Positions 9,002 through 43,954 of a stretch of 43,985 nucleotides of DNA are shown piece after piece. Under the pieces are notes generated by a model. That model made no database searches. It had not been told where the DNA came from and saw only the letters and a list, made by a program, of their open reading frames with translations. This stretch comes from a virus. A program made the translations under genes and the position numbers. The stretch lies in IMG/VR virus record IMGVR_UViG_3300045988_075559; one strand, given 5' to 3'. Positions within the stretch are counted from its first letter, which is position 1; each line of letters starts with the position of its first letter.

Positions 9002-9072
9002 TAGCGGGAGACGGATTCGAACCGCCATTCCAGGCTAAGGAGGCCTGTAAGTTTCCGTTACTTTATCCCGCG
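9002..9072 (-). tRNA. Initiator-like tRNA with anticodon CCU (decodes AGG)
   Basis: 71-nt cloverleaf with acceptor CGCGGGA/UCCCGCU and C1 opposite U72. D stem AAGU/ACUU (A11:U24); anticodon arm CAGGC-CUCCUUA-GCCUG; T arm GGCGG-UUCGAAU-CCGUC; A73. No encoded CCA. Confidence 0.75.
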
Positions 9073-9079
9073 GTAATTA

Positions 9080-9153
9080 TGGACATTCTGAGATTTGAAC
9101 TCAGGACCGTCCGGTTATGAGCCGGATGCTCTGACCAGCTGAGCTAAATGTCC
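9080..9153 (-). tRNA. tRNA with anticodon CAU, elongator type (Met or Ile2)
   Basis: 74-nt canonical cloverleaf: GGACAUU/AAUGUCC (G1:C72 paired), D arm GCUC-AGCUGGUCA-GAGC, anticodon arm UCCGG-CUCAUAA-CCGGA, T arm CUGAG-UUCAAAU-CUCAG. Confidence 0.85.
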
Positions 9154-17512: not shown

Positions 17513-18271
17513 TCATCCCCCCTTGTCTATCCTTATAAGGGTATAGTGCCGGTATGCATATCCTGTGTAGGGGTTAATCCCCATTTTCACAGACTCCGGA
17601 TCCACGTAATATCCTTTCGGAGCTTTCGGGTAGATTGGCCGTTTGTGCCGGTCCACCAGATTTCTTCTTTTTATCTCTTTTTGCTTAGGTTCTTTCCGGA
17701 TCAGGTTACGGGAGCAACTATATCTCTTAATTTCGTCCGGTTCATGTTCTTCCAGAGGCTTTGTGATATACTCTGAAAGTTTCACATATCCTCCGGCATC
17801 ATAGAGAGATGCGAAATATACATGCCCGTTCTCCCACAGTTCTGATATGATCCTGTCTGTTCCGGTCTCCTGATCTGCTTCTCTGTTTACCAGAAGGTGC
17901 ACATGGGGGCCGCCTTTCTTTCCAATTGCCAGGCGGTAAATATATTTCAGTTCCCATCCCTTTTTCTTATATTTCAGTCGGACTTTTCTGATCAGCTTCG
18001 CAAGATCTTTCTTCATCTGTTCCCACGCGGGGCGTTCCCCCTTCTTGTATGTGAGAGTCATCCAGTAATCGCCCGGAGAGAAATTCCACTTGATCAGTCT
18101 CCTGACATCTCTTTCCCTTCTCCACTGGTTCTGTTTGGCAATTTCTTCCGGAGTAGCTTTCTTTTTCTCTTCTCTTTCCTGTCCCCTGGCTCCATACCTT
18201 CCGGTATGCTTTTCCTCTATCTCCATGGTACTCCCAAAGTCCCATATCTCCCTTATGTATGCCCATCTCAT
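17513..18271 (-). CDS. Rolling-circle replication initiator (HUH endonuclease)
   Basis: ATG is 7 nt after AGGAG. Motif 1 is YWMTLTYKK, the HUH motif is GGPHVHLLVN, and the Tyr motif is YVKLSEYITKP. Confidence 0.65.
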   Translation of the reverse strand: MRWAYIREIWDFGSTMEIEEKHTGRYGARGQEREEKKKATPEEIAKQNQWRRERDVRRLIKWNFSPGDYWMTLTYKKGERPAWEQMKKDLAKLIRKVRLKYKKKGWELKYIYRLAIGKKGGPHVHLLVNREADQETGTDRIISELWENGHVYFASLYDAGGYVKLSEYITKPLEEHEPDEIKRYSCSRNLIRKEPKQKEIKRRNLVDRHKRPIYPKAPKGYYVDPESVKMGINPYTGYAYRHYTLIRIDKGG

Positions 18272-27146: not shown

Positions 27147-27353
27147 TTATACATTTTCTTCATTTTCAATAAAATTCTGTACATCTTCTTCCTCCTCTGT
27201 TTCTTCTGGAATATAAACGTCTGTCATTGCTGCCAGATACTGAATTGTTACGTTCTGGTTTTCAATGATTTTTTTCTGCTTTTCTACGGTTGCTCTGAGG
27301 TTCTCGTCCTCTGCCGCTTCCGCAGGTGTCTGAGTCATTTTTCTTACTTCCAT
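27147..27353 (-). CDS. Hypothetical acidic protein (68 aa)
   Basis: ATG 27351-27353 follows AAAGGGTGAAGAAC. It overlaps the RT ORF 3' end by about 90 nt. Confidence 0.4.
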   Translation of the reverse strand: MEVRKMTQTPAEAAEDENLRATVEKQKKIIENQNVTIQYLAAMTDVYIPEETEEEEDVQNFIENEENV

Positions 27354-28383
27354 GTTCTTCACCCTTTCTTAACTGTTTTAAATATTTCTGAGTCCTTTGT
27401 TTTACTTTATACGAATTTCCTTTATCAGCATTATTTTCCCAGGAATTGTGATGTTCATCTACTTTTTCCGGTTCAAGTTCTCCTCTCTGTGATTTATGAA
27501 CCATCCTCACAAGAGTTTTTCTTTCATGCTTTACACTATCTGAGTTAAGCGTCATGATTATCCTTCCTGTTTCTGTCAGCCGATAGTCGAATCCCAAAAA
27601 TGTAAATCCTTTTTCAAGCGGTGTTATGTGTGATTTCTTTTCATTTGCTTCCAGCCCGTATATCTGCAATTGCTTCATTATCTCACCGAAAACTCTCTCA
27701 GCCTGTTTTCTTGTTTTAACAAGAATCCAGAAATCATCCATGTATCTGATATTGTATTTTACATGCAACTGTTCTTTGATGTAATGATCTAATGGATTCA
27801 GAAGCGAAATACCGGCAATCTGTACCATTTGAGATCCTGGATTGTATCCGGTTTCTCCTGCGTACTGGTCTCGTAAAACTCCACACGACATTTCTGTTGT
27901 ATCCTTATCCGTCAGATTCCTTATTTGCCTTTCCACATCACTGTGCCGCATGTTTAGGTAGTATCCATGTATGTCAACCTGAACTATCCATCCTTTTGTG
28001 CCGTATCTGCAGTAATAATTCCATAGATATTTTTTAACCAGTGCTCTTGCAAAGTCTGTTCCCTTTCCTGTCTGGCAGGCGCAATTTGAATAAGTGAATC
28101 CCTTTGTCATTTGAGGATAAAGAGAATTATCATTAATGCTCCTTTGATATACCCGATCCTTAAACGGAATACTGAGAGCTTCCCGGCGTTTCGGATATGT
28201 TATCAAGACTGTTTTAGGCTTCCCATTCTTCCATGTTCCGTCTTGATGCTGATGTTTCATCCGGAGTATATTTTCTTCTCCATTTAACAAAAACGACTTA
28301 ACTGATGGTTTCCATGTTACTCCATTCTTACATTTCAGCATTGATTCGTATAAACTATCATAGCTTGTTATATGATCTTTCAT
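27262..28383 (-). CDS. DGR reverse transcriptase
   Basis: YMDD box (IRYMDDFWIL) and a DGR-type ...NPGSQMVQIAG... motif. It lies downstream of the TR. The last about 30 aa may be non-native read-through. Confidence 0.85.
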   Translation of the reverse strand: MKDHITSYDSLYESMLKCKNGVTWKPSVKSFLLNGEENILRMKHQHQDGTWKNGKPKTVLITYPKRREALSIPFKDRVYQRSINDNSLYPQMTKGFTYSNCACQTGKGTDFARALVKKYLWNYYCRYGTKGWIVQVDIHGYYLNMRHSDVERQIRNLTDKDTTEMSCGVLRDQYAGETGYNPGSQMVQIAGISLLNPLDHYIKEQLHVKYNIRYMDDFWILVKTRKQAERVFGEIMKQLQIYGLEANEKKSHITPLEKGFTFLGFDYRLTETGRIIMTLNSDSVKHERKTLVRMVHKSQRGELEPEKVDEHHNSWENNADKGNSYKVKQRTQKYLKQLRKGEEHGSKKNDSDTCGSGRGREPQSNRRKAEKNH

Positions 28384-28548
28384 CTTTTGTGCTTCCGCAG
28401 TTTCTCAGTGCTGGCAGGCTTATGTAAGTCACGCACTGTCTCTTTCGATTATCCGCGGTATTGTTTAGGCTTATGCCAGGGATTTCGGCTCCTTGTCTAT
28501 ATCTTCAAGGCGATCATTGCTATGCAATAACCATAATGCTTTTAGGAA

Positions 28549-28675
28549 GACAATCGGGGCATACACATTCGAGTTCCATGCGTTCGTGTTGTTGACGTTG
28601 CCGGATGTGTTCACATTCATGACGTTGTTAGCGTTGCCGCGGTTAGCCGAACGAGAAAACACATTCTGAGGTGTT
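28549..28675 (-). repeat. DGR template repeat (TR)
   Basis: 127 bp aligned to the VR at an offset of +641. There are 14 mismatches, every one at a TR adenine in the coding sense (T on the plus strand). Confidence 0.9.
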
Positions 28676-28694
28676 AGCCTACGTCCCATGTAAT

Positions 28695-29126
28695 TTAAGA
28701 GTATCTTTCTATGTCAGATTCCCGCCATTTTTTAATATAATTTCTCACTTTTACTGTTTGTTCTGACCAATATTCTACCCTTTTTCCTTTCAGGTGAAAG
28801 AGTGGATGCGCAAGCCCAATCAGTGCAAGTAAGTTGTTACAATCCAGAATCGCCTGACGCTGCAGTTTGCTTCTCCAGGCCCATAGCTCTTTCTTATTCT
28901 TTTCTGTTACCCGGATATTGTTTGCGGTCCAGGCATTTATATAAATGTCTTTCGCTGTCCGGATGATATCGTCCGTGAGCGCAGATTGATATTCCGGAAG
29001 AAATACCTTTTTATTCTTGCAGATCTGAATCGTGTAGACCGCCAGCTCTCTTGCGTACCATACTGCATTTAACTGTCTATTCTGCGGTGTGTCCGGTACA
29101 TTTCTCTTACCTGCTTTAACTGCCAT
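28695..29126 (-). CDS. avd: DGR accessory variability determinant (Avd-like)
   Basis: 143-aa basic helical protein between the target gene and the TR. ATG follows AAAGGAAAAGAA. Confidence 0.7.
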   Translation of the reverse strand: MAVKAGKRNVPDTPQNRQLNAVWYARELAVYTIQICKNKKVFLPEYQSALTDDIIRTAKDIYINAWTANNIRVTEKNKKELWAWRSKLQRQAILDCNNLLALIGLAHPLFHLKGKRVEYWSEQTVKVRNYIKKWRESDIERYS

Positions 29127-29140
29127 TTCTTTTCCTTTCT

Positions 29141-29166
29141 ATCCCTGCATCCGCGGGTGCAGGGAT
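29141..29166. promoter_or_regulatory. GC-rich hairpin downstream of the VR (DGR target-recognition element candidate)
   Basis: atccctgca / tccgcggg / tgcagggat. It lies 15-40 nt beyond the target-gene stop, 3' of the VR. Confidence 0.6.
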
Positions 29167-29180
29167 TATTTGATTGCTGA

Positions 29181-30377
29181 TTATACGACGACAAGCGGGG
29201 CATACACATTCGAGTACCATGCGCTCGTGTCGTCGACGGAGCCGGATGTGTTCACATTCATGACGCTGTAAGCGTTGCCGCGGCCAGCCGAACGAGAAAA
29301 CACACCCTGAGGTGATGTGTGGTTCGCAGCTGAATATCTAATCATAATCGGATAGGTTTTCCATGGTTCAATCGGTGTTTTGGAATTTGTTCTCCGCTGC
29401 CAGTATTCGTGAACTGCTCCCTCCTCTTTGCTCATGTTTACGTTCATCTGAGACATGGATGCAAGGAATACTCTGTCGTATGTGATATCTGTCACGCCAC
29501 CATCATTGACGGTATTCGCAAGGGTAGTTACTTTGACCGTCTTTAATGCTGCCAGCATATCCGCAGGCATTCCGCAGAGGAAACCGTCTTTTGTGGCTAA
29601 CTGACTCGGCGCAATATCCCAGTCGTCCTGTTTTGTCCACCATTTGCCCTTTGGTTGTGTTGAATTGAGCCACTGACGGGCCGCTGAGTATTTCCAGCGA
29701 TTCCAGCCGTATGCTGATTCCTGCATACTGTTAAGATTTCCGTTTCTGGTTGCGTACTGCATGGTTCCCAGATCTGTTCCGTCTGATCCGGATGTAACTG
29801 CCACGGTTTCAATTGTGGTGATTCCGTCTGCAGCGTAAGAGGTTGCTTTCCAGTTGCTCGGCACAATGTCCGGCATCTGTGTGAATCCATATACTGATCC
29901 ACCTGCAGGTACGGCCTTGGTCAAAGTAAACTGCCAGTATGTGTCTGCTTTTGCATTATTTCCCCAATCCTTTTCTAATTTGAGGTGATAAGTTCCTGCT
30001 GCCAGTCCATCCGGACAGCGCAAGAATGCACGGTTGCTAAACTGTAATCCGAATGGGGTTGTGTAATGCGCTTCCAGGAATGTTCCTGAAATGACTTCTC
30101 CGTCCTCCAGTTCTACATTTTCAAAATGTGTAACCTGCCACGGGAAATCATATTCCTGGCCGGCGGCAGTATCTGTCCATTTCTCAAGAATCTGGTCTCC
30201 GAAATCAAAAATTTTCTGAGCGTACCCATTTCTGGAAAGCCCGCTGATCTGGTCCCACGTTGATATGTTTTCCAGGTTTGCCGCCTGTGTAAATGCCATT
30301 GTCTGCAATGCCTGTGAAATTTCTTTCATAGTGCTTTCGCGTGGAAAATTAATGAGTGTCTGGTCTCCTGTTGCCAT
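29181..30377 (-). CDS. DGR target protein (putative receptor-binding tail protein with C-terminal variable region)
   Basis: ATG is 7 nt after AAGGAGG. The C-terminus ...GVFSRSAGRGNAYSVMNVNTSGSVDDTSAWYSNVYAPLVVV carries the VR. Confidence 0.85.
   Translation of the reverse strand: MATGDQTLINFPRESTMKEISQALQTMAFTQAANLENISTWDQISGLSRNGYAQKIFDFGDQILEKWTDTAAGQEYDFPWQVTHFENVELEDGEVISGTFLEAHYTTPFGLQFSNRAFLRCPDGLAAGTYHLKLEKDWGNNAKADTYWQFTLTKAVPAGGSVYGFTQMPDIVPSNWKATSYAADGITTIETVAVTSGSDGTDLGTMQYATRNGNLNSMQESAYGWNRWKYSAARQWLNSTQPKGKWWTKQDDWDIAPSQLATKDGFLCGMPADMLAALKTVKVTTLANTVNDGGVTDITYDRVFLASMSQMNVNMSKEEGAVHEYWQRRTNSKTPIEPWKTYPIMIRYSAANHTSPQGVFSRSAGRGNAYSVMNVNTSGSVDDTSAWYSNVYAPLVVV
29190..29316 (-). 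repeat. DGR variable repeat (VR)
   Basis: The last about 43 codons of the target gene. TR Asn codons correspond to G/Y/S/D in the VR. Confidence 0.9.
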
Positions 30378-31429: not shown

Positions 31430-31726
31430 TCAGTCGATTCGGTCTATATTGTATTCCACCGCACAGATGTGCTCAATTCTGCATCCTCTGGCCTCATTCC
31501 ATCCCTCGGCAAAATACGCCACATCTGCAGTTGCTAACAATTCCAGAGACTTTCCAAGGAACCATAAAGGCTTTGCGTCTGCTGGTGCTGCCTGAAAGAA
31601 TGAATCAATCACTTCCACTGGTTCACCTATTCGTTTTTCTGCGCTTTCAATTGCTTCCTTTCTTACTGCAAGGATCTCTTCATCCGTTTTTCCTCTCATT
31701 GGCTGACTAATGAATAATTTCTTCAT
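31430..31726 (-). CDS. Small conserved protein (resembles nucleoside 2-deoxyribosyltransferase-like / DUF4406 proteins, from memory)
   Basis: ATG is 6 nt after AAGGAGG. Motifs MKKLFISQPMRGKTDEEI...IDSF...PLWFLGKSLELLATADVAYFAEGWNEARGCRIEH. Confidence 0.45.
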   Translation of the reverse strand: MKKLFISQPMRGKTDEEILAVRKEAIESAEKRIGEPVEVIDSFFQAAPADAKPLWFLGKSLELLATADVAYFAEGWNEARGCRIEHICAVEYNIDRID

Positions 31727-31737
31727 TTTCTTCCTCC

Positions 31738-32478
31738 TTAAAATTTTAATCTGTATTTCAATCGGCTTCTTTTTCTGCTAAAACGCACCTTATCTACGGT
31801 TGGATCAGAATACATTTTGAGTCTGCCCTTTACAACCTTAAAGGCGGCAAAATGGACGTTTCCGGTTTCGCCTTTAAGTTCAGTTTCTTTCTGGTGGACA
31901 TAATTATCAATGTCTTTCTTTCCCTCTTCTACTCTGCCGGGAATAGATGCTGCAACTTTCTGTGCTTCTCCGGCATAGTATTTCGCATTGTCTTCTTTTT
32001 GCTCCGGATAATCTCCTCTTCCGTGTGCCCAGGCCTCTGCCTGGTCTCTGGCTTTTTCTGACCGGTCGGCTGCCTGATTGACTGCCTCGACCGTCTCTCT
32101 GAAAATCTCCGGTTCTTCCGGCGATCCGGGAACCTCCGGTTTTGGTCTTGCTTTTATTGGTATGGTTATTTTATGTTCTGTATTTCCAGAATTATTTTCA
32201 CTCAGGTATATGAATGCGTATATTTTGTAATTTTGGTCGATTTCTTCGTTCTCCAGCATGGAATCCGGAATTGGCACATCTGTTACAGAATCTTTCGTTG
32301 TTCCTATTCTTGTTACAGATGTTCCGCCTGTTTCTTCCAATGAGAAATGTATCTCAATAGCCGGCCGTAGAGTAAGTCCCTGAATTCTTAAAATTTGTCC
32401 ATAATCCCACTGCCACGCTGTTTCGGCCCGAATATTTGTTTCTGCTTCTGAAAAAACAGCAGTGATTATATTATTCCT
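31738..32478 (-). CDS. Fibre-module virion protein (family not recognised), proposed AGG start
   Basis: The frame is open for 46 codons upstream of the ORF-track TTG (32340, no SD). AGG 32476-32478 is 6 nt after GGAGG (32485-32489) and overlaps the rSAM 3' end. Confidence 0.6.
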   Translation of the reverse strand, partial: RNNIITAVFSEAETNIRAETAWQWDYGQILRIQGLTLRPAIEIHFSLEETGGTSVTRIGTTKDSVTDVPIPDSMLENEEIDQNYKIYAFIYLSENNSGNTEHKITIPIKARPKPEVPGSPEEPEIFRETVEAVNQAADRSEKARDQAEAWAHGRGDYPEQKEDNAKYYAGEAQKVAASIPGRVEEGKKDIDNYVHQKETELKGETGNVHFAAFKVVKGRLKMYSDPTVDKVRFSRKRSRLKYRLKF

Positions 32479-33796
32479 CTTCTGCCTCCTTCTTTAGCAA
32501 ATTCCATTCTTTTTCCGTGATAATATCCAATGCCCATTCTTTCGGGATGTATAGTTTCATTCTTTTATTGATTTTATTTTTTCTGTAATATCTGTTCCAG
32601 AAATAGGCATTCGCCAGTGCTCTTGCTTTGTGCATAATGCAAATATATGTCGCCCTGGCGTCCGGTGTTCCGAAAATCTGGTAATTGTATGCAGTGCACC
32701 AGCTGCAGCCTTCTGCGATAGGACAGTTAAAGCACTCGTCTGTGCTCTGTGTTCTCCTGTCAATTTTTTTCAAGCGCTCTACGCGGCATCTGTCGCATTC
32801 CGTCTGACAGATTCCATAATCTACATCTCCGATTGAATAAGGTTCCTGTTGATTTCCCAGAGAGCTTTCCATGTAGCGCAAACACGGATATATAATGCCT
32901 GCCGGATCTACGGCCAGCATCACTCCGTTTCCGCCACACCAATTCTCCAGATCGTCCTCCTGTTTCGGATGGAAGAACTCCTCTTCAAACAGCGAACAAA
33001 AATAATCATTTTCGAAGTCCATGTTGTTTTCCAAAATGTAGTCTGCGAGACGCTTCATTTCGTTATATAGTACGGTGGCGTGAATTGGTTTCCATCCATC
33101 CTCGTATACGCAGTTCGCATTTATTTCGCAATATCCCAGCTCAAACATATGGACGATCGCATCGTATGTATGCATGACATTGGCCGGCGCGATAGTGATC
33201 TTTGAACCCATGTAATTTCCTTTGTCCATCCAATCTTTCGCCGCAGATACTGCCAAGTCATACGAAGGGCTTCCATCTGAGAATATGCGGCAGGAATCAT
33301 GCAGTTCTTGATTCCCGTCAACTGTGACTGAGAAAGACAATCTGTTCTTCCATTTATCAAGTACTCTTCCGACTTCCGGATCATGATATAGTGTTCCGTT
33401 TGAGCATATAGAAAACATCGTTTTATCAAGCCACGGGTGATTAAGTTCTATCATTCTGTCAATTGCGTATGAGCATATCTGGTCTATTAATTTCGCTTCT
33501 AACAATGGCTCACCGCCAATGAAATCAATGATCAATCCCGGAGATTTATGGGGGTTGATATATTCTTTCATCCCTTTTTCTCCGGTTAACAATAAATCTA
33601 TCATTTTCTCAGCCGTTTCAAGGCTCATTTTGCGTTTTCCTTTTTTGATCTGGTAGCAGTATGTGCACGCCAGATTACAATCATCGGTGACCTGAAATGT
33701 CACTGTCTGTGTTAAAATTTTTTCTTTTTCATTTGCCTGATGAAGTTCCGGATATAATCGGCTTAATTGTTCTGTGTACTGCTCAGTTCTTTTCAT
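32471..33796 (-). CDS. Radical SAM / SPASM-domain peptide maturase (CXXX-repeat-target type)
   Basis: ATG 33794-33796 is 8 nt after GAAGG. CNLACTYC (CX3CX2C), GGEPLL, and C-terminal Cys clusters (CGGNG...YPC, CFNCPIAEGCSWC). Confidence 0.85.
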   Translation of the reverse strand: MKRTEQYTEQLSRLYPELHQANEKEKILTQTVTFQVTDDCNLACTYCYQIKKGKRKMSLETAEKMIDLLLTGEKGMKEYINPHKSPGLIIDFIGGEPLLEAKLIDQICSYAIDRMIELNHPWLDKTMFSICSNGTLYHDPEVGRVLDKWKNRLSFSVTVDGNQELHDSCRIFSDGSPSYDLAVSAAKDWMDKGNYMGSKITIAPANVMHTYDAIVHMFELGYCEINANCVYEDGWKPIHATVLYNEMKRLADYILENNMDFENDYFCSLFEEEFFHPKQEDDLENWCGGNGVMLAVDPAGIIYPCLRYMESSLGNQQEPYSIGDVDYGICQTECDRCRVERLKKIDRRTQSTDECFNCPIAEGCSWCTAYNYQIFGTPDARATYICIMHKARALANAYFWNRYYRKNKINKRMKLYIPKEWALDIITEKEWNLLKKEAEEE

Positions 33797-34124
33797 TTTC
33801 AATACCTTCGATTTCACAATTGCACATTATGTTGATCTCAAGTTTCGTCGAATTGTTTGGAAGCATCCAATTATATTTATGTTTCTTTATTGCTCCCGGT
33901 ATATACAACTTTTCAATTTCCTGAACTGCCAGTTTGTACTCCGCTTCCAGTTCTACTCCTTTTTTTTGATATGCTTTGAATGCATCAGAATTAATAATAT
34001 CCGGATCGTTCGGATGTGATTCAATAATTCTCTGGATAACATCTTTTGCAAATCCCAGTTCAAAGTTTAATCTTTCAATGTATTCTGCCTTTTCTCGTTC
34101 GATTTCTACAATTATCTTTCTCAT
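33783..34124 (-). CDS. Small helical protein, candidate rSAM accessory partner (113 aa)
   Basis: ATG 34122-34124 is 5 nt after AAGGGAG. It overlaps the rSAM start by 14 nt. Confidence 0.55.
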   Translation of the reverse strand: MRKIIVEIEREKAEYIERLNFELGFAKDVIQRIIESHPNDPDIINSDAFKAYQKKGVELEAEYKLAVQEIEKLYIPGAIKKHKYNWMLPNNSTKLEINIMCNCEIEGIENEKN

Positions 34125-34138
34125 AGTTTCTCCCTTCT

Positions 34139-34444
34139 TTAGATCGCTCCAAGTTTTATTGTGATCACACTTCCTCTGTCTGACAAATCCTCTGTAATCA
34201 CGTCCACTTTCCATCCTGGGAAGTCCCTTTTTGTTTTCCCAACGCTTAATGTGAATTCCGAGTCGTTTCCGTCTGATAATTTTTTCTTAACTGATTCAAA
34301 AGTTTCATTTTCTCCCACATACATGGTGATAAGGCTGTTGTAACTTAATTCATTTCCTTTTCCATCCTTAAATTTTTCAAATGAGAATGAATTGTTCATT
34401 CCTGCTATTTCTATTTCCTGTTTATTTTTTAAAACTAACTTCAT
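34139..34444 (-). CDS. Hypothetical protein (101 aa)
   Basis: ATG is 6 nt after AGGAGG. Confidence 0.6.
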   Translation of the reverse strand: MKLVLKNKQEIEIAGMNNSFSFEKFKDGKGNELSYNSLITMYVGENETFESVKKKLSDGNDSEFTLSVGKTKRDFPGWKVDVITEDLSDRGSVITIKLGAI

Positions 34445-34482
34445 TTTTCTTCCTCCTGTTTTTCAAAAAATGACCAAGTCGG

Positions 34483-35142
34483 TCATTTTACCGCAGATGA
34501 AACCTGCCCATAGCATGTATCTTTGCATGTATTTCCGCAATTAGTAGAACAATTTGACGAGCATGAAGTACTGCATCCTCCGCAAATCGTAGAACAGCTA
34601 TTTGAACACGATTCCGCGCATCCTCCCATGCATGAAGATGTACATTCGGATCCGCATGAACTTCCGCATGAGCTGCATCCAGAACAGCCAGTGCATGATG
34701 TCGAACACGATGCTGTGCATCTATTGTCGCATCCAGTACAGTATCCTGAACATGTCCCAGAGCATCCAGAGCAATCGTATGAACAACTGTACCCGCATCC
34801 AGTACATCCATTTTTGCAGCCGCCCGAACAGTCATCTGCGCATGTTGCAAAGCAATTGCCTCCGCATGCATTTGTGCAGTCTGCGCAAGTCTGCGCACAA
34901 TTTGTCGTGCAGGTCTGGAAGCAATCCGTTTTGCAGCCACCCGAACAGTCATCTGCACATGTTGCCTGACAACCCGTACATTCATCCTCACATGCTCTGT
35001 TGCATAGCCTATCACAATTCCCACTGCATCCAGTTTTACAGCTGGTTGAGCATGCGGTTCCGCATGAGCTTCCGCAATTTCCTTTCGTCGTATTTTGACA
35101 ACTTGTCGCGCACTGAGTTCCGCAACTAGATGTACAAGCCCT
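34483..35142 (-). CDS. CXXX-repeat Cys-rich protein (219 codons, 54 Cys), proposed AGG start
   Basis: Absent from the ORF track. This 660-nt open frame, (AGG)ACTSSCGTQCATSCQN...CKDTCYGQVSSAVK, has no N-terminal ATG/GTG/TTG. AGG 35140-35142 is 8 nt after AGGAGG (35151-35156). Stop is TGA 34483-34485. Confidence 0.7.
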   Translation of the reverse strand, partial: RACTSSCGTQCATSCQNTTKGNCGSSCGTACSTSCKTGCSGNCDRLCNRACEDECTGCQATCADDCSGGCKTDCFQTCTTNCAQTCADCTNACGGNCFATCADDCSGGCKNGCTGCGYSCSYDCSGCSGTCSGYCTGCDNRCTASCSTSCTGCSGCSSCGSSCGSECTSSCMGGCAESCSNSCSTICGGCSTSCSSNCSTNCGNTCKDTCYGQVSSAVK

Positions 35143-35163
35143 TTTGTTTTCCTCCTTTTAATT

Positions 35164-35691
35164 TTAAGCTTTTATTGATGTAGTGCATCCCGCGCCGCAT
35201 GTATGTGTGCAGCCGCTCGAACAGCCGCCTGTGCAGCCGCCACAGCCGCCTGAACAGCCATCTGAGCACTGTTTTCCACATGTAGTGCTACAGTTTCCAG
35301 AGCACGAAGCGCACCCCATACAGGCAGATGCACAGGCCAGTTCGCATAGACCTGTGCAATTCCCCCTACACCCCGATACCTTTGCATCTTTCTGTATGTT
35401 CAGCATTTTGTCTGCGAAATTTTCCGCTCTTTCCAAAGTCATTTCAAGAGCAGTTCTTTCTTTTCTCAGACTGTTATCTTGCAGGAAATCATTGATTTCC
35501 AGAAGTGGATCAATAATCTTTTGAATGTGCTCATCTGAAACCTGTTTTCCATTCTGCGGCATGAAATCAAAATCATATTCCTGCGATGCATATTTCTTCA
35601 GTGAACCTCCCATTTGTTCTGCTGTTCTGCTCATCATTGTTTTTTTTACTTTTTCTTTGATCCGTTTCAAAGATTCAGCTGTTATAATCCT
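35164..35691 (-). CDS. Protein with helical N-domain and C-terminal CXXX-repeat tail (17 Cys), proposed AGG start
   Basis: AGG 35689-35691 is 7 nt after AGGAG (35699-35703). The ORF-track TTG 35670 lacks an SD. C-terminus: CRGNCTGLCELACASACMGCASCSGNCSTTCGKQCSDGCSGGCGGCTGGCSSGCTHTCGAGC. Confidence 0.7.
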   Translation of the reverse strand, partial: RIITAESLKRIKEKVKKTMMSRTAEQMGGSLKKYASQEYDFDFMPQNGKQVSDEHIQKIIDPLLEINDFLQDNSLRKERTALEMTLERAENFADKMLNIQKDAKVSGCRGNCTGLCELACASACMGCASCSGNCSTTCGKQCSDGCSGGCGGCTGGCSSGCTHTCGAGCTTSIKA

Positions 35692-35701
35692 TATTCTTCT
35701 C

Positions 35702-36268
35702 CTATACTGCTGACACTGACGTGTAAGCCGGGTTCACGAGCATATAGTCAATTGTTACTATTTCCATTATTGTCGTCTTCATGATCGACGCTTCAATGTA
35801 CATTTTCGTACCTTTTTTTACTTCTCCGAAATCTACAATAGTTCCCAAAATCTTATATTTATTATTTTCGTCAAACATACTTGGCGAAATGCGGATTTCT
35901 TTAATGATCTCTCCGGTATATGATCCTTTTCTGATTTTTACAGATATAACAGAATCTGTTTTTGATATATCTGAAACCTTCATTCGAATCATGACTGAAT
36001 ATGTCCCTATTTTCAGTGCAAGGTTTTTCGAAAACAGTGGCGTCTCGGATATAGCACTTGTACTTTTACTCAGAGCAAGATACTCCGCATCTTCATCGTT
36101 AATCGTAGCTTCTGCAGAAAGGTTTGTTCCTCCAACATAAATTCCACCGGCATTCTCTACTTTCGCAAGTGTTTCATCAACCTTGTCCATCATATCTGCG
36201 AAATCTTTTACGTTGAAGAAGTCATCATCCTCCGGCTTCGGAAATCCATAATTAATTGTTTTTTGCAA
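35702..36268 (-). CDS. Tail fibre-associated protein
   Basis: TTG is 6 nt after AGGAGG. The N-terminal ...YGFPKPEDDDFFNVKDFADMMDKVD... resembles a tail-fibre N-terminal motif. Confidence 0.5.
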   Translation of the reverse strand: MQKTINYGFPKPEDDDFFNVKDFADMMDKVDETLAKVENAGGIYVGGTNLSAEATINDEDAEYLALSKSTSAISETPLFSKNLALKIGTYSVMIRMKVSDISKTDSVISVKIRKGSYTGEIIKEIRISPSMFDENNKYKILGTIVDFGEVKKGTKMYIEASIMKTTIMEIVTIDYMLVNPAYTSVSAV

Positions 36269-36803
36269 ATGTTACCTCCTCATTCCGCAGCTGGTAATAT
36301 GTCTTTTCTTTTAGCTGCTTATATGTATAAGGTTTATATTTTTTGTATTGATTGTATCTAAGAGTTATTTCTAGTAGATAATCGAGCGGAACCATCTGTT
36401 CAAACAGATCTTCTACTCCCTTGATCATATACTTACGCGTCACTTCAACCTGACATGATACCTGTTTTTTATCCAGTTCAATGTCCAGTATATAGTTTTC
36501 TCTTCCAAGCACTGCGTCCAGTTTCTGGCGTAGTGTTGTTTCTGTGTATACAGGACTGGACCACCACCTCAGCAGCACTTCCACTTTTCGGTCTTCCAGG
36601 CTAGCGGTATCTAACGGCTGAATTCCGAGGATCTTTTCTCTGCGCTGTATTCCTGATTCTTCAGCTGTTTTGATCGTAATATTACGGTCAATTTCTTCCA
36701 GATAATTTTCAAGAACCCTTCCAACGTTGTCTCCTGCATCAACGCACGCTTTTATCTCTCTTATATCTATTACAACATCCGGGTACTCCACATTTATATG
36801 CAT
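36252..36803 (-). CDS. XkdU-like (DUF2313-type) baseplate/tail protein
   Basis: ATG overlaps the upstream stop. It occupies the position after the baseplate J gene. Confidence 0.55.
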   Translation of the reverse strand: MHINVEYPDVVIDIREIKACVDAGDNVGRVLENYLEEIDRNITIKTAEESGIQRREKILGIQPLDTASLEDRKVEVLLRWWSSPVYTETTLRQKLDAVLGRENYILDIELDKKQVSCQVEVTRKYMIKGVEDLFEQMVPLDYLLEITLRYNQYKKYKPYTYKQLKEKTYYQLRNEEVTFAKNN

Positions 36804-37864
36804 GTGATATCCCCCTTTACCGGCACGGTTCCATCTGTTATCTGTAGATTCTCCGCTTTCCCATTAATTTTAGTGTCTGCCACATCAATGATTCCTTTGA
36901 TATTTACAACTGCTGCCTCAATTTGTAGTATTCTCACAATGATTGTTTCTTTATTTTCCCATTCTTTTCTCAGATTTAGTAAATATTCATCGATAGTCTG
37001 GTTAATATAGCTTTTCAGGGCTTCCGCAGTATATCCGGATTCGCATGTGATTGTTGTCTCTATATTTACGGTAGTTTCTTCTACGCCAGTGATCGTCACC
37101 CTATGCCCGATGGGTGCAAATCCCTCACCTTCTCCGCTGTTTACAATCGGATCAACAGCCGTCTGAGTTGCAGTTATAACATCCTGTGACGGTTTTCTGT
37201 AATCCTGCCCTATGATAGTTATGGCAATTCTGTCCGATGGTGCCTTTACACGTTTCAGCTTGCATCCATATACACCGCTTAATTCTTTTATACGGCTTTT
37301 GTAATATTCCCTATTTCCCGCAAACCCTCTGTAATTATATGTCGCAAGTAATCTCGCGCGATAGCTCTCCGTCTCTTCCTGATCTTTTCCTTCTAATGTA
37401 CACTTAATAATTCTTCCCCATTCAAAATTATCTACGTATCCGATCGGGTCGAGGTCTCCCATTATGTGATTCGGTTCTGCACCCGGGCTATCACAGCCAA
37501 GTCGGTATGTGTGTTCTTTTTCATCAATCACATTGTATACTGTGTAATTGTATTCGTCGAGATTCCAGCGCGATCCAAGTGGTACTTCACAGTTAAATTG
37601 AGCAGTCATTTCTGCATATGTTGCCTGGTTGATATAACATCCTCTGTCGTTTCCATTCCTGATCAAGTGTTCCAGGTCCGCTGTGTCTGCATACATATTC
37701 TGTTCTATTCCAGCAAGCATCAGATAAGCTTCCTCAAGTCTTACCGCCTGTTTTGCGCATGCGTTAAAAATCAAGCTGCCTTCTGATGTATCAATGTCGT
37801 CTGGCATGTCCCTCATCATTGATCGCATGATTGCTTCGTATGTCATTTCTTCAAACCTCTGCAT
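36794..37864 (-). CDS. Baseplate J-like protein (XkdT-like)
   Basis: ...MTYEAIMRSMMRDMPDDIDTSEGSLIFNA... is a J-family N-terminus. The start is ambiguous between ATG 37864, in-frame AGG 37856-58 and ATG 37846. Confidence 0.75.
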   Translation of the reverse strand: MQRFEEMTYEAIMRSMMRDMPDDIDTSEGSLIFNACAKQAVRLEEAYLMLAGIEQNMYADTADLEHLIRNGNDRGCYINQATYAEMTAQFNCEVPLGSRWNLDEYNYTVYNVIDEKEHTYRLGCDSPGAEPNHIMGDLDPIGYVDNFEWGRIIKCTLEGKDQEETESYRARLLATYNYRGFAGNREYYKSRIKELSGVYGCKLKRVKAPSDRIAITIIGQDYRKPSQDVITATQTAVDPIVNSGEGEGFAPIGHRVTITGVEETTVNIETTITCESGYTAEALKSYINQTIDEYLLNLRKEWENKETIIVRILQIEAAVVNIKGIIDVADTKINGKAENLQITDGTVPVKGDITCI

Positions 37865-43562: not shown

Positions 43563-43954
43563 ACTTCTTCTTCAGCGTCTTCTCCAAGTCCTGAGAGCTT
43601 TACGATTTCTGATGCAATGCTTCCAGTTTCCATTCCGAACAGAATCGCCGCAAGATCCTTTGGCGTAGAAGCCCCAAAATGTTCCATCAATTTCTGATCA
43701 GTCAGACATGGATCCACGACACCGTATACACAGCACATTAAATTAAAATCATATGTGGCATTCATGTCACGGTTTCCCTTTTTGTCATACAGCATGGCCT
43801 GAAGGGTGTTGTATCTTTTTCCTGATAATTCTCTAATCGTAATCTCTGCGTCTTCGCCTACCAGTTTGGCCAGCTTCTTTGATTTAATTTTTTTTGTCTC
43901 TTTCTCTGTGGCTTTTGCTTTATCTACGCTGAGTAACTTTTCAATTAAATTCCT
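43550..43954 (-). CDS. Tail assembly chaperone (XkdN-like), proposed AGG start
   Basis: Open frame of 52 codons upstream of the ORF-track ATG (43795) with no ATG/GTG/TTG. AGG 43952-43954 (= 66-68 in the left repeat copy) is 7 nt after GGAGG (43962-43966). Confidence 0.7.
   Translation of the reverse strand, partial: RNLIEKLLSVDKAKATEKETKKIKSKKLAKLVGEDAEITIRELSGKRYNTLQAMLYDKKGNRDMNATYDFNLMCCVYGVVDPCLTDQKLMEHFGASTPKDLAAILFGMETGSIASEIVKLSGLGEDAEEEVKNL
43556..43562 (-). promoter_or_regulatory. Slippery heptamer A AAA AAC
   Basis: It is in the zero frame (GT)A AAA AAC, two codons before the chaperone stop. Confidence 0.7.

Follow-up and report, generated by a model that had tools for sequence, protein, structure and literature searches.

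A radical-SAM/SPASM maturase and two Cys-repeat proteins in the tail module of a phage, with candidate AGG start codons

Organization of the cassette

The window is the whole stretch of viral DNA that was analysed (43,985 nt; IMG/VR record IMGVR_UViG_3300045988_075559). It derives from a temperate phage of gut bacteria, with a contractile tail, that infects anaerobic Firmicutes, with Blautia as the probable host. In the baseplate-to-fibre part of its late operon it carries a TIGR04115 system, a cassette that lies entirely on the minus strand and consists of ORF1, ORF2, two genes for small proteins and the gene for an rSAM/SPASM enzyme.

35702..37864, minus strand: block of upstream baseplate genes, which includes the next three
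36794–37858/37864, minus strand: baseplate J
36252–36803, minus strand: Mu-gp48/XkdU-like protein
35702–36268, minus strand: short fibre-like protein, 188 aa
35164..35691, minus strand: ORF1, Cys-repeat protein 1, 175 codons, N-domain and CXXX/CXX tail
34483..35142, minus strand: ORF2, Cys-repeat protein 2, 219 aa, 54 Cys, without the N-domain
34812..34965, minus strand: internal duplication in ORF2, 37-nt copies 34812–34848 and 34929–34965
34139..34444, minus strand: accessory protein, 101 aa, ATG start with a good SD
33783..34124, minus strand: partner protein, 113 aa, 3' end overlapping the rSAM start
32471..33796, minus strand: rSAM/SPASM maturase, 441 aa, TIGR04115
31738..32478, minus strand: next gene after the rSAM, fibre/baseplate-distal type, phrog_16164 N-terminal region

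All five cassette genes listed by a first-pass annotation of this DNA are present on the minus strand, and the sizes and Cys counts that it gave for ORF1 (17 Cys in the tail) and ORF2 (54) are correct. It had also placed baseplate genes upstream and fibres and a DGR target downstream, and this agrees with the flanking genes: baseplate J and the Mu-gp48/XkdU-like gene on the 5' side; fibre, DGR target, Avd and RT on the 3' side. The gene that follows the rSAM starts at AGG 32478 and overlaps the rSAM stop. The DGR and a DUF4406 gene are accessory genes in the same region as the cassette.

The radical-SAM enzyme and the small proteins

The enzyme has the motifs CNLACTYC (CX3CX2C) and IGGEPLL, and its C-terminal SPASM region holds seven cysteines that are invariant. 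The start is most likely ATG 33796, as in homologues; these match the 441-aa form, and GTG 33817 is disfavoured. The family that the first-pass annotation had named is TIGR04115, the NCBIfam "radical SAM peptide maturase, CXXX-repeat target family", and the rSAM matches the whole model with 576.8 bits (cut-off 350). It is followed by PapB with 170 bits, QhpD with 112 and the SCIFF maturase with 98, scores that are far below the cut-offs of 340–453 for models of the PapB, QhpD and SCIFF/CteB types. Membership of a housekeeping family without Cys-repeat neighbours had also been considered; an anSME identity was rejected (46.9 bits against a cut-off of 349), and the link to Cys repeats is present in nearly all of the ~160 related loci. 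The closest solved relative is CteB (5WGG; E 6e-19, query residues 25–374), and the N-terminal RRE domain of SCIFF-type maturases is missing from the phage enzyme. No biochemical characterization of the TIGR04115 family was found in the literature searched.

For the 113-aa partner protein there is a confident predicted model (a strand, a long helical hairpin and a beta-hairpin). Residues H37, H82, C101 and C103 are invariant, and a homologue adjoins the rSAM in 17 of the 80 genome loci (tblastn). The suggestion that it belongs to a CXXX-repeat-system family was not borne out, as there was no match to NCBIfam, Pfam or PHROG models even at E ≤ 10. The partner does not have a PqqD/RRE fold, and its role is therefore a guess. 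The 101-aa protein, which had no family match in NCBIfam, Pfam or PHROG, is found in the window clade and in the related locus L065 (136 aa there) and is missing from the 78–80% clade.

The Cys-repeat proteins

ORF1 starts with a conserved, helical N-domain of ~105 aa (residues 1 to ~100 are predicted to be helical, and the AF2 pLDDT is 85–88 for residues 1–60) and carries the invariant motif C(R/K)xxCTGLC. Its last 68 aa hold the 17 Cys, with a spacing of 4 thirteen times and of 3 three times, and this tail has a pLDDT of <40 in the AF2 model. Almost all Cys of ORF2 are likewise in CXXX/CXX (spacing 4, 43 times; 3, nine times; 8, once). Over 99 related Cys-rich segments, 3906 Cys-Cys intervals have a spacing of 4 and 1207 a spacing of 3, with almost nothing else, which is far above chance. 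Cys makes up 25% of the tracts, the spacers are small and polar, and no acceptor residue is conserved at a fixed offset. There is no signal peptide on ORF1 or ORF2, and both fall below the cut-offs of the target models TIGR04114 and TIGR04117 (14.7 against 20; 19.6 against 50).

ORF1 and ORF2 are halves of a gene that is single in more distant phages, where one fused ORF takes their place. The N-domain is not an obligatory leader, because it is absent from ORF2 and from a fusion protein in L065. ORF2 is under strong purifying selection: among 21 distinct alleles the median pN/pS is 0.084, none of the 54 Cys is lost, there is no frameshift or stop, and 33 Cys columns vary synonymously (TGT/TGC). 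It also contains two 37-nt copies, 117 nt apart and identical at 35 of 37 positions, that encode ATCADDCSGGCK. This two-mismatch direct repeat had been noticed earlier and is real, but its first copy had been placed 9 nt away from 34812–34848.

AGG start codons and a phage tRNA(CCU)

The first codon of both ORF1 (35691) and ORF2 (35142) is AGG, with no ATG, GTG or TTG there; the automated ORF list starts ORF1 at TTG 35670 and misses ORF2. The ORF1 codon (35691–35689) is 7 nt after the SD AGGAG (35703–35699) and the ORF2 codon (35142–35140) is 8 nt after the SD AAAGGAGG (35158–35151). Across clade members the AGG of ORF1 is invariant and the codon that follows varies (ATT/ATC), and all 21 distinct ORF2 alleles begin with AGG. 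There is an ATG at the ORF1 start position in the homologues P0125 and L003 and at the ORF2 start codon in a sister clade (M-A-C-S-K-G-C); one and the same codon is thus ATG in some relatives and AGG in others. On the coding strand the first codon after an SD is ATG in 13 cases and AGG in 11, and each other codon occurs at most four times. About ten late genes start with AGG, namely both Cys genes and about eight tail and head structural genes. Full-length profile coverage of the tail tube, the XkdN-like chaperone and the phrog_16164 gene is obtained only from AGG; for the last of these the match covers profile positions 2–227 (269.5 bits) from AGG and begins at position 46 (211.8 bits) from the first canonical TTG. 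These data suggest, and in part show, that ORF1 and ORF2 are translated from SD-spaced AGG codons. Neither the missing canonical starts of the two Cys genes nor an explanation by AGG and an initiator-like tRNA figured in the first-pass annotation, which also did not mention the single gene of distant relatives.

9002..9072, minus strand: phage tRNA with anticodon CCU and initiator hallmarks, candidate decoder of the AGG starts

The hallmarks are a C1xU72 mismatch, G2:C71, C3:G70, A73, A11:U24 and three G/C pairs closing the anticodon stem. Departures from the pattern are a third anticodon-stem pair of C:G or U:G in place of G:C and, in the window, a U at position 37. An ordinary tRNA-Arg could also have A20, C35 and U36, and ARAGORN calls the gene Arg; the best match of a 76-nt orthologue is to the E. 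coli metZWV initiator genes. Across relatives, AGG starts and this tRNA occur together. Only where the phage has the tRNA does the portal gene begin with AGG, and the AGG and ATG start counts are 114 and 105 in the window clade versus 12 and 173 in the ATG clade. We propose that tRNA(CCU) may decode the AGG start codons; the starting amino acid of AGG-initiated proteins is one that we infer.

Distribution among relatives

The first-pass annotation had called for a survey of synteny, and we found the same arrangement in the tail modules of many Firmicutes prophages and in >100 viral contigs. A Cys-repeat ORF adjoins the rSAM in nearly all loci (80 viral and 80 genome loci), the largest such protein having 650 aa and 145 Cys. 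The tail setting is also seen in prophages of Brevibacillus, Faecalibacterium and Vallitalea and in a Tenericutes MAG, and the baseplate-to-fibre position is kept in prophages of myo and sipho type that differ widely. In L065 two glycine-rich domains of fibre type (PF12810, E 5e-90) are joined to the Cys repeat in one protein, and its gene comes after four fibre-like genes and before the endolysin. A virion role of the Cys-repeat proteins is therefore likely, because the cassette recurs in tail modules and the repeat is joined in L065 to fibre-type domains; conserved synteny and this one fusion back the earlier view that they are probably virion-distal parts. A Bacteroidales branch, ~40% identical, is not phage-borne and has a Cys protein with a TAT/lipoprotein signal (L222), so the family as a whole is not confined to virions.

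Proposed mechanism and alternatives

Our best overall explanation, which we hold with about even confidence, is that the rSAM cross-links two long Cys-repeat proteins for the distal tail and that these are started at AGG and served by tRNA(CCU). The rSAM would be made from a normal ATG, translationally coupled with the 113-aa partner, and its substrates, in a host cytoplasm that is reducing and anoxic, would be the two signal-less C-x-x-x/C-x-x proteins. It would most probably install many intramolecular Cys thioethers of the ranthipeptide/QhpC type, a chemistry suggested only by analogy with the nearest enzymes, PapB, QhpD and CteB. The Cys-X3-Asp pattern of PapB would not apply as such, because i+4 in a CXXX repeat is the next Cys. 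The Gly/Ser/Thr/Cys tract might thereby become a covalently stapled rod or knob, resistant to reductant and protease. Gene position and the single domain fusion point to incorporation of ORF1 and ORF2 into the virion, and the distal tail would carry the product, to which ORF1 would contribute a helical adaptor domain at its N-terminus and ORF2 most of the repeat.

The modified Cys proteins could instead be RiPP-like or "moron" cargo that stays outside the virion, either released at lysis or intracellular (a toxin, signalling, anti-defence or adhesion matrix). TIGR04115 is defined as a peptide-maturase family whose nearest characterized relatives mature RiPPs, an exported, non-phage version exists in Bacteroidales, and the DGR and DUF4406 accessory genes share the region. 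We nevertheless consider cargo unlikely: the substrates have 175–650 aa, no leader-protease, transporter or immunity gene is nearby, and the substrate genes share the AGG-start regime with structural genes, to which the conserved baseplate/fibre position and the fibre-type fusion can be added. Rather doubtful, too, is the idea that the repeats bind metal or Fe–S in the manner of metallothionein, or that the rSAM performs other chemistry (formylglycine formation, C-methylation, epimerization or C–C links). Lambda gpL is an example of a phage tail-tip protein that binds an Fe–S cluster. A Cys content of 25% with small polar spacers, the lack of an acceptor at a fixed offset and the distance of the rSAM from PapB, QhpD and CteB (98–170 bits against 340–453) would all fit. 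Simple metal binding, however, needs no dedicated SPASM maturase, and one accompanies the repeats in nearly every locus; the three best-scoring characterized families all form Cys-S-to-carbon bonds, and the anSME model gives only 46.9 bits.

Two further alternatives concern the AGG starts. ORF1 and ORF2 might be one protein made by read-through of TAA, with no AGG initiation of ORF2, given that they share a frame in the window clade, the 78–80% clade and L075, that distant relatives have a single fused ORF, and that the spacer codon is Cys in some alleles, which extends the CXXX register upstream. We think this very improbable, since there are two TAA stops in the window, the sister clade has two stops and its own SD and ATG at the window's AGG codon, and the two ORFs are in different frames in other lineages; about ten further genes, for which there is no ORF upstream to be read through, also show the pattern of an AGG 8 nt after a perfect SD. 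It is scarcely credible that loss of the start codon has left ORF2, and perhaps also ORF1, as a decaying pseudogene and that tRNA(CCU) is an ordinary elongator tRNA-Arg for a rare codon. Selection on ORF2, with all 54 Cys kept and 21 alleles intact, contradicts decay, and the essential tail tube, tail chaperone and portal genes show the same AGG pattern. In favour of this reading, canonical starts are missing from both Cys genes, gene callers pass over ORF2 or shorten ORF1, and the Arg call and the A20, C35 and U36 that fit ArgRS identity would suit an elongator; but the 1:72 mismatch and A11:U24 are marks of an initiator that are incompatible with elongation, and AGG makes up only 38 of the 281 internal Arg codons.

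Comparison with known systems

The systems that NCBIfam defines bioinformatically by TIGR04115 with TIGR04114/TIGR04117 resemble the phage enzyme in CX3CX2C, the SPASM Cys and a CXXX-repeat neighbour. The phage case differs in its very long substrates, which lie below the target cut-offs, and in its conserved helical N-domain, tail-module setting and AGG start. PapB, QhpD and the SCIFF maturase CteB all form Cys thioethers (PMC10114670). PapB (freyrasin), which we group with the NxxcB ranthipeptide maturases, is the best-scoring characterized family; this SPASM enzyme makes several Cys-S-to-C-beta thioethers in repeated short motifs. The phage score is, however, below the PapB cut-off of 340, and PapB links Cys to Asp at i+4, where the phage repeat has Cys. 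RiPP precursors are short, exported leader-core peptides, whereas the phage proteins have no leader protease or transporter. QhpD, the third-best model (far below its cut-off of 453), acts in maturation of the quinohemoprotein amine dehydrogenase gamma-subunit and is a SPASM enzyme that puts multiple intra-protein Cys thioethers into QhpC, a structural subunit and not a secreted peptide (PMC10114670). QhpC has four specific links, no periodic repeat and no viral setting, whereas the phage substrates are periodic. CteB has the same rSAM and SPASM architecture as the phage enzyme, but the latter lacks its ~85-residue N-terminal RRE domain, the alignment beginning at CteB residue 92, and SCIFF peptides are far shorter than the phage substrates (~45 aa, six Cys).

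The isopeptide chainmail of the HK97 capsid is likewise a post-translational covalent stabilization of a phage particle, although its links are autocatalytic Lys–Asn isopeptides in the capsid, whereas in the present phage an enzyme would make radical cross-links, and the site would be a tail appendage. An engineered E. coli initiator tRNA(CCU) with AGG was the best-performing non-canonical initiation pair (bioRxiv 10.64898/2026.04.16.719103). Like the amber initiator, it resembles the phage tRNA in having an initiator-type body with an altered anticodon, and CCU pairs with an SD-spaced AGG. The engineered tRNAs are synthetic and work in E. coli, whereas the phage tRNA would be a natural gene serving about ten late genes.

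The cassette and its radical SAM enzyme

All the genes that the first-pass annotation placed in a cluster at 32471-35691 on the minus strand are present, in the following order:

35164-35691, minus strand: ORF1, Cys-repeat protein of 175 codons; about 105 residues predicted to be helical (containing the N-domain), then a 68-residue tail with 17 Cys
34483-35142, minus strand: ORF2, Cys-repeat protein of 219 residues with 54 Cys
34139-34444, minus strand: p101, a 101-aa protein
33783-34124, minus strand: p113, a 113-aa protein
32471-33796, minus strand: rSAM, the radical SAM protein

The start first described for rSAM is less likely than the ATG at 33796, which gives a protein of 441 aa, matching the homologues. 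The enzyme is a bona fide member of TIGR04115, 'radical SAM peptide maturase, CXXX-repeat target family', as had been supposed from the sequence. It scores 576.8 bits (E 2.2e-173) against this NCBIfam equivalog HMM, over model positions 1-359 of 359, and the curated cut-off is 350 bits. The next-best models all score under their own cut-offs: PapB, 170.2 bits (family NF047865, cut-off 340 bits); QhpD, 112 bits; and the SCIFF maturase, 98 bits. The alternative that rSAM is an anaerobic sulfatase maturase, a housekeeping enzyme, is not supported, as TIGR03942 gives 46.9 bits against a cut-off of 349 and covers the N-terminal half alone. The enzyme has the motif CNLACTYC, in which C40, C44 and C47 form CX3CX2C, and IGGEPLL, with GGEP at residues 94-97. 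There are seven SPASM-type Cys (C287, C305, C355, C358, C364, C367 and C386), all of which, together with CX3CX2C and GGEP, are invariant in 11 diverse homologues. The closest solved structure is CteB (5WGG, 6e-19). The N-terminal RRE domain of about 85 residues is missing from rSAM; the alignments to CteB and to the SCIFF model both begin after it. In PHROGs the enzyme corresponds to phrog_1802, 'radical SAM domain-containing protein'.

The TIGR04115-type family is large: there are 3,460 clusters at E <= 1e-30, and members occur in at least 123 viral contigs and in 571 or more genome loci. A Cys-repeat ORF adjoins the rSAM gene in the window (ORF1 and ORF2) and in nearly all related loci. Among GenBank phages there was no blastn match to the cassette, and tblastn found only relatives of at most 39% identity in unannotated faecal phage records, together with jumbo-phage rSAMs. 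Many rSAM homologues of 549-778 aa (P0040-P0047, P0064-P0079 and similar proteins) contain intein (Hint) and LAGLIDADG domains and the rSAM gene is therefore a frequent intein host.

The Cys-repeat proteins

The spacing between successive Cys in the ORF1 tail is 4 in 13 cases and 3 in three; in ORF2 it is 4 in 43 cases, 3 in nine and 8 in one. The same periodicity is seen in 99 related Cys-rich segments (4, 3906 cases; 3, 1207 cases; other values almost never), where the spacer residues are Ser, Gly, Thr, Ala, Asn and Asp. Although this CXXX periodicity is present, neither protein passes the curated models: ORF1 scores 14.7 bits on TIGR04114 (cut-off 20) and ORF2 scores 19.6 bits on TIGR04117 (cut-off 50). 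Neither has a signal peptide. The direct repeat of 37 nt reported in ORF2 exists, but its coordinates have been corrected to 34812-34848 and 34929-34965.

The Cys gene is divided into two ORFs in the clade of the window, in the sister clade with 78-80% identity and in some others. In more distant relatives a single ORF of 361-501 aa, with as many as 105 Cys, encodes the N-domain together with a long repeat; at one locus (L198) the single ORF reaches 650 aa and 145 Cys. An invariant entry motif, C(R/K)xxCTGLC, marks the N-domain family, and ORF2-type proteins have the N-terminus A-C-[ST]-x-x-C-G-T-x-C-A in common. Residues 1-60 of ORF1 are modelled by AF2 with a pLDDT of 85-88; a Foldseek search of the ORF1 model against the PDB gave nothing significant. 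Using the N-domain alone, phmmer found just 29 cluster representatives, with the domain N-terminal in all and no informative fusion. Some ORF1 homologues (P0125, P0154 and others) are assigned to PF27846 in precomputed annotation, and this recent Pfam family may already cover the N-domain or the repeat. At a further locus (L215, 7205-7969) the Cys repeat comes first and a domain resembling the ORF1 N-domain (ELKNAMDNEYRRRGKE...) is C-terminal, so that the domain order is apparently swapped.

ORF2 is clearly under selection, judging from its alleles. There are 21 distinct alleles, every one of 657 nt, with a median pN/pS of 0.084; no Cys is lost in any of them and there is synonymous TGT/TGC variation at 33 Cys codons. 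On these data we rejected the reading of ORF2 as a pseudogene.

Searches of NCBIfam, Pfam and PHROG with p113 and p101 gave no match even at E <= 10, so the suggested tie between p113 and the CXXX-repeat family models was not borne out. The p113 model is confident (pLDDT 90); Foldseek found no significant match to it in the PDB and no PqqD/RRE fold. Residues H37, H82, C101 and C103 are invariant and p113 is translationally coupled to rSAM. The protein may present the substrate or bind metal.

Position of the cassette in the tail module

The genes on the minus strand of the window run from two tRNAs through terminase, portal and head genes to the sheath and tube. The order continues across the window ends with the XkdN-like chaperone, followed by the tape measure and a baseplate group made up of DUF2577, W, J and Mu-gp48-like genes; a short fibre-like protein of 188 aa comes next. 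The cassette (ORF1, ORF2, p101, p113 and rSAM) then leads into genes for phrog_16164 and DUF4406 proteins and a fibre, and the series closes with the DGR target, Avd, TR, RT and endolysin. The late operon leaves the window at position 80, the end of the tube gene, and resumes at 43954 with the XkdN-like chaperone. It is thus continuous across the window ends and the window therefore looks like a complete, circularly permuted genome of a contractile-tail phage, about 44 kb in size. The features around the fibre genes are:

31430-31726, minus strand: DUF4406 / nucleoside 2-deoxyribosyltransferase-like gene, 98 aa, flanked by the phrog_16164 and tail-fibre genes
27262-30377, minus strand: complete DGR, with RT at 27262-28383, TR at 28537-28673, Avd at 28695-29126 and VR at 29178-29314

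The VR lies at the 3' end of the 398-aa target gene and is 88% identical to the TR over 137 nt. A nucleotide-metabolism fold, as in the DUF4406 gene, is oddly located amid tail genes.

ORF1 and ORF2 lie within the baseplate-fibre block of the late operon, and this placement is kept across relatives. It is seen in contigs whose rSAMs are 86% and 78% identical, in 80 IMG/VR loci and in unrelated prophages of Brevibacillus, Faecalibacterium, Vallitalea and a Tenericutes MAG. The hosts of the relatives are mainly Lachnospiraceae and Oscillospiraceae, the closest named one being Blautia wexlerae. A Bacteroidales branch, about 40% identical, is not phage-borne and has a Cys protein with a TAT/lipoprotein signal. 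It is represented by L222 (5232-7173), a Paludibacteraceae MAG locus, in which a Cys-repeat protein is followed by a second rSAM-like gene. The neighbours there are a sigma/anti-sigma pair, a caspase-like protein and a TPR protein.

One related locus (L065) encodes a fusion in which about 210 aa of ORF2-type repeat are joined to a pair of glycine-rich PF12810 domains (E 5e-90). The fusion gene is preceded by four fibre-like genes and followed by p101-like, p113-like, rSAM and endolysin genes. It is the best evidence that the Cys repeat would belong to a tail appendage; a scan for further domain fusions of the repeat found none besides this one.

Proposed chemistry and role

Taken together, the data make it very probable that the Cys proteins are the substrates of rSAM. 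The enzymes PapB, QhpD and CteB all install Cys thioethers (PMC10114670). By analogy, rSAM would put in many intramolecular Cys thioethers, and on balance we favour thioether formation as its chemistry. Cross-links of this kind would be well matched to strict anaerobes, since a reducing gut milieu neither lets disulfides form nor lets them persist. The end product would be a distal tail element that is covalently stapled. From gene position and the fusion, a structural interpretation of the Cys proteins is plausible, and we give an even chance to the cross-linked product being a virion component.

The cassette differs in several respects from the sactipeptide and ranthipeptide RiPPs. Those systems have a short leader-core precursor, whereas the phage substrates are of 175-219 aa and reach 650 aa elsewhere. 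They have a PqqD-like RRE in or beside the enzyme, but the phage rSAM is without one and the p113 model has no PqqD-like match. They also have a protease or exporter, and the phage cassette has neither protease nor transporter. We found no coverage of CXXX-repeat rSAM systems in phages in the literature searched; the matches for cysteine-rich repeats and bacteriophage were to unrelated beta-defensin-like repeats.

The phage tail context and the giant substrates are new, while the underlying TIGR04115 kind is known but uncharacterized, being a large family without known chemistry or role. With most Firmicutes members placed in phage tail modules, what was an 'orphan RiPP system' can be tested as a means by which phages that infect strict anaerobes stabilize extracellular appendages without disulfides; very long natural substrates for a SPASM enzyme are pinpointed as well. 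Should rSAM indeed staple virion proteins, these would be the first phage structural proteins cross-linked by a radical enzyme, and TIGR04115 would gain its first assigned role.

AGG start codons

The codons at the starts given for ORF1 (35691) and ORF2 (35142) are both AGG and not start codons of the usual kind. In ORF2 there is no ATG, GTG or TTG start before residue 160. The AGG is 8 nt after the Shine-Dalgarno (SD) sequence AAAGGAGG in 21/21 alleles and the 78-80% clade has ATG at the same codon. In ORF1 the AGG is 7 nt after AGGAG and relatives have ATG there. The ATT at 35688 was rejected as the ORF1 start since this codon alternates between ATT and ATC while the AGG is invariant; the TTG at 35670 has no SD and would lose conserved N-terminal residues. 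Read-through of TAA joining ORF1 and ORF2 was also rejected. A 6-nt duplication (TAAAAT/TTAAAA) at 35151-35166 sets the window apart from all its close relatives, as seen against L001 and L008, and adds a second in-frame TAA between the two ORFs. Some relatives have Cys (TGT or TGC) rather than Asn as the spacer codon ahead of the ORF2 AGG.

We counted codons on the coding strand of the window that have a strong SD 5-10 nt upstream, lie at most 20 codons from a stop and open at least 100 codons. ATG was found 13 times, AGG 11 times and any other codon at most four times (AGA, 1; AAG, 1). Ten of the 11 AGG starts were judged genuine; the remaining one, at 17523, probably belongs to the SD of an ATG four codons downstream. 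The ten belong to about ten late structural genes, all on the minus strand:

43954: tail chaperone
43396: tape measure
38614: DUF2577
37858: baseplate J
35691 and 35142: the two Cys proteins
32478: phrog_16164
6252: portal
1606: sheath
514: tube

Read from the AGG, the tail tube aligns with PF09393 positions 5-138 of 139 and the XkdN-like chaperone with PF08890 positions 2-132 of 135. The phrog_16164 gene covers profile positions 2-227 from the AGG, compared with 46-227 from the first canonical start. The sheath, portal, tape measure and baseplate J behave alike, and the related locus L001 has an ATG at the exact position of the baseplate J AGG. AGG makes up only 38 of the 281 internal Arg codons.

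Public gene calls for this phage clade (L001 4813-5310; P0121-P0127) are systematically wrong because of the AGG starts. Gene callers put an off-frame ORF in place of ORF2, ORF1 is shortened to 149-157 aa and the gene after rSAM is missed. AGG initiation is needed for correct annotation of these abundant gut phages, in which current gene callers lose or shorten the tube, chaperone, portal, fibre and Cys-repeat genes.

A phage tRNA(CCU) with initiator hallmarks

Two tRNA genes lie in the window:

9002-9072, minus strand: tRNA(CCU), just upstream of the packaging genes, with initiator hallmarks
9080-9153, minus strand: second tRNA, anticodon CAT

The anticodon of the first is CCU in every copy, not the CAU standard for initiators, and is complementary to the AGG starts. 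The tRNA has a C1xU72 mismatch (a non-pair by Infernal), G2:C71, C3:G70 and A73. Positions 1 and 72 are unpaired in all variants, being A1xA72 in a 76-nt orthologue. The purine11:pyrimidine24 pair is A11:U24; the D stem reads AAGU/ACUU in the window, and in the related locus L120 it reads GAGC/GCUC. Bacterial initiators are expected to have three consecutive G:C pairs at 29-31:39-41 of the anticodon stem; the window has G29:C41, G30:C40 and C31:G39, variant 3 has U31:G39 and L120 has A29:U41. T-stem changes between variants are compensatory. The 76-nt orthologue, found in a clade whose terminase is 70% identical, differs little from tRNAfMet and its best E. coli match is the metZWV initiator operon; by blastn the 71-nt window tRNA itself matches nothing in E. 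coli. IMG/VR loci contain identical copies of tRNA(CCU), although a pattern scan of that database gave 0 matches.

In 45 terminase-anchored loci the portal gene starts with an SD-spaced AGG only in phages that carry tRNA(CCU), and with ATG or TTG in every phage that lacks it. The ratio of AGG to ATG starts is 44/82 in tRNA-positive loci compared with 6/49 in tRNA-negative loci, and 114/105 in the clade of the window compared with 12/173 in the ATG clade. An engineered E. coli initiator tRNA(CCU) with AGG is reported to be the most robust non-canonical initiation pair (bioRxiv 10.64898/2026.04.16.719103). We found no report of a natural AGG initiator tRNA in the literature searched and, as far as we can tell, the system is undescribed in nature. 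Taken together, the data make it probable that AGG initiation proceeds through the phage tRNA(CCU).

If confirmed, AGG would be a start codon that a virus has naturally reassigned by means of an initiator tRNA of its own. A phage could in this way make the translation of its late genes hinge on a tRNA that it encodes, and the tRNA with its AGG codon amounts to an orthogonal initiation pair ready for use. The system is worth follow-up in its own right. The combined scheme is a tentative one: rSAM would staple distal-tail virion proteins with dozens of thioethers, and the making of these and of some eight further late structural proteins would depend on a phage initiator tRNA whose anticodon has changed from CAU to CCU and which thereby lets AGG act as a start codon.

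The second tRNA is paired at 1:72 and has C11:G24, so it is of the elongator type. We presume that it is more like tRNA-Ile2 (lysidine, reading AUA) than tRNA-Met.
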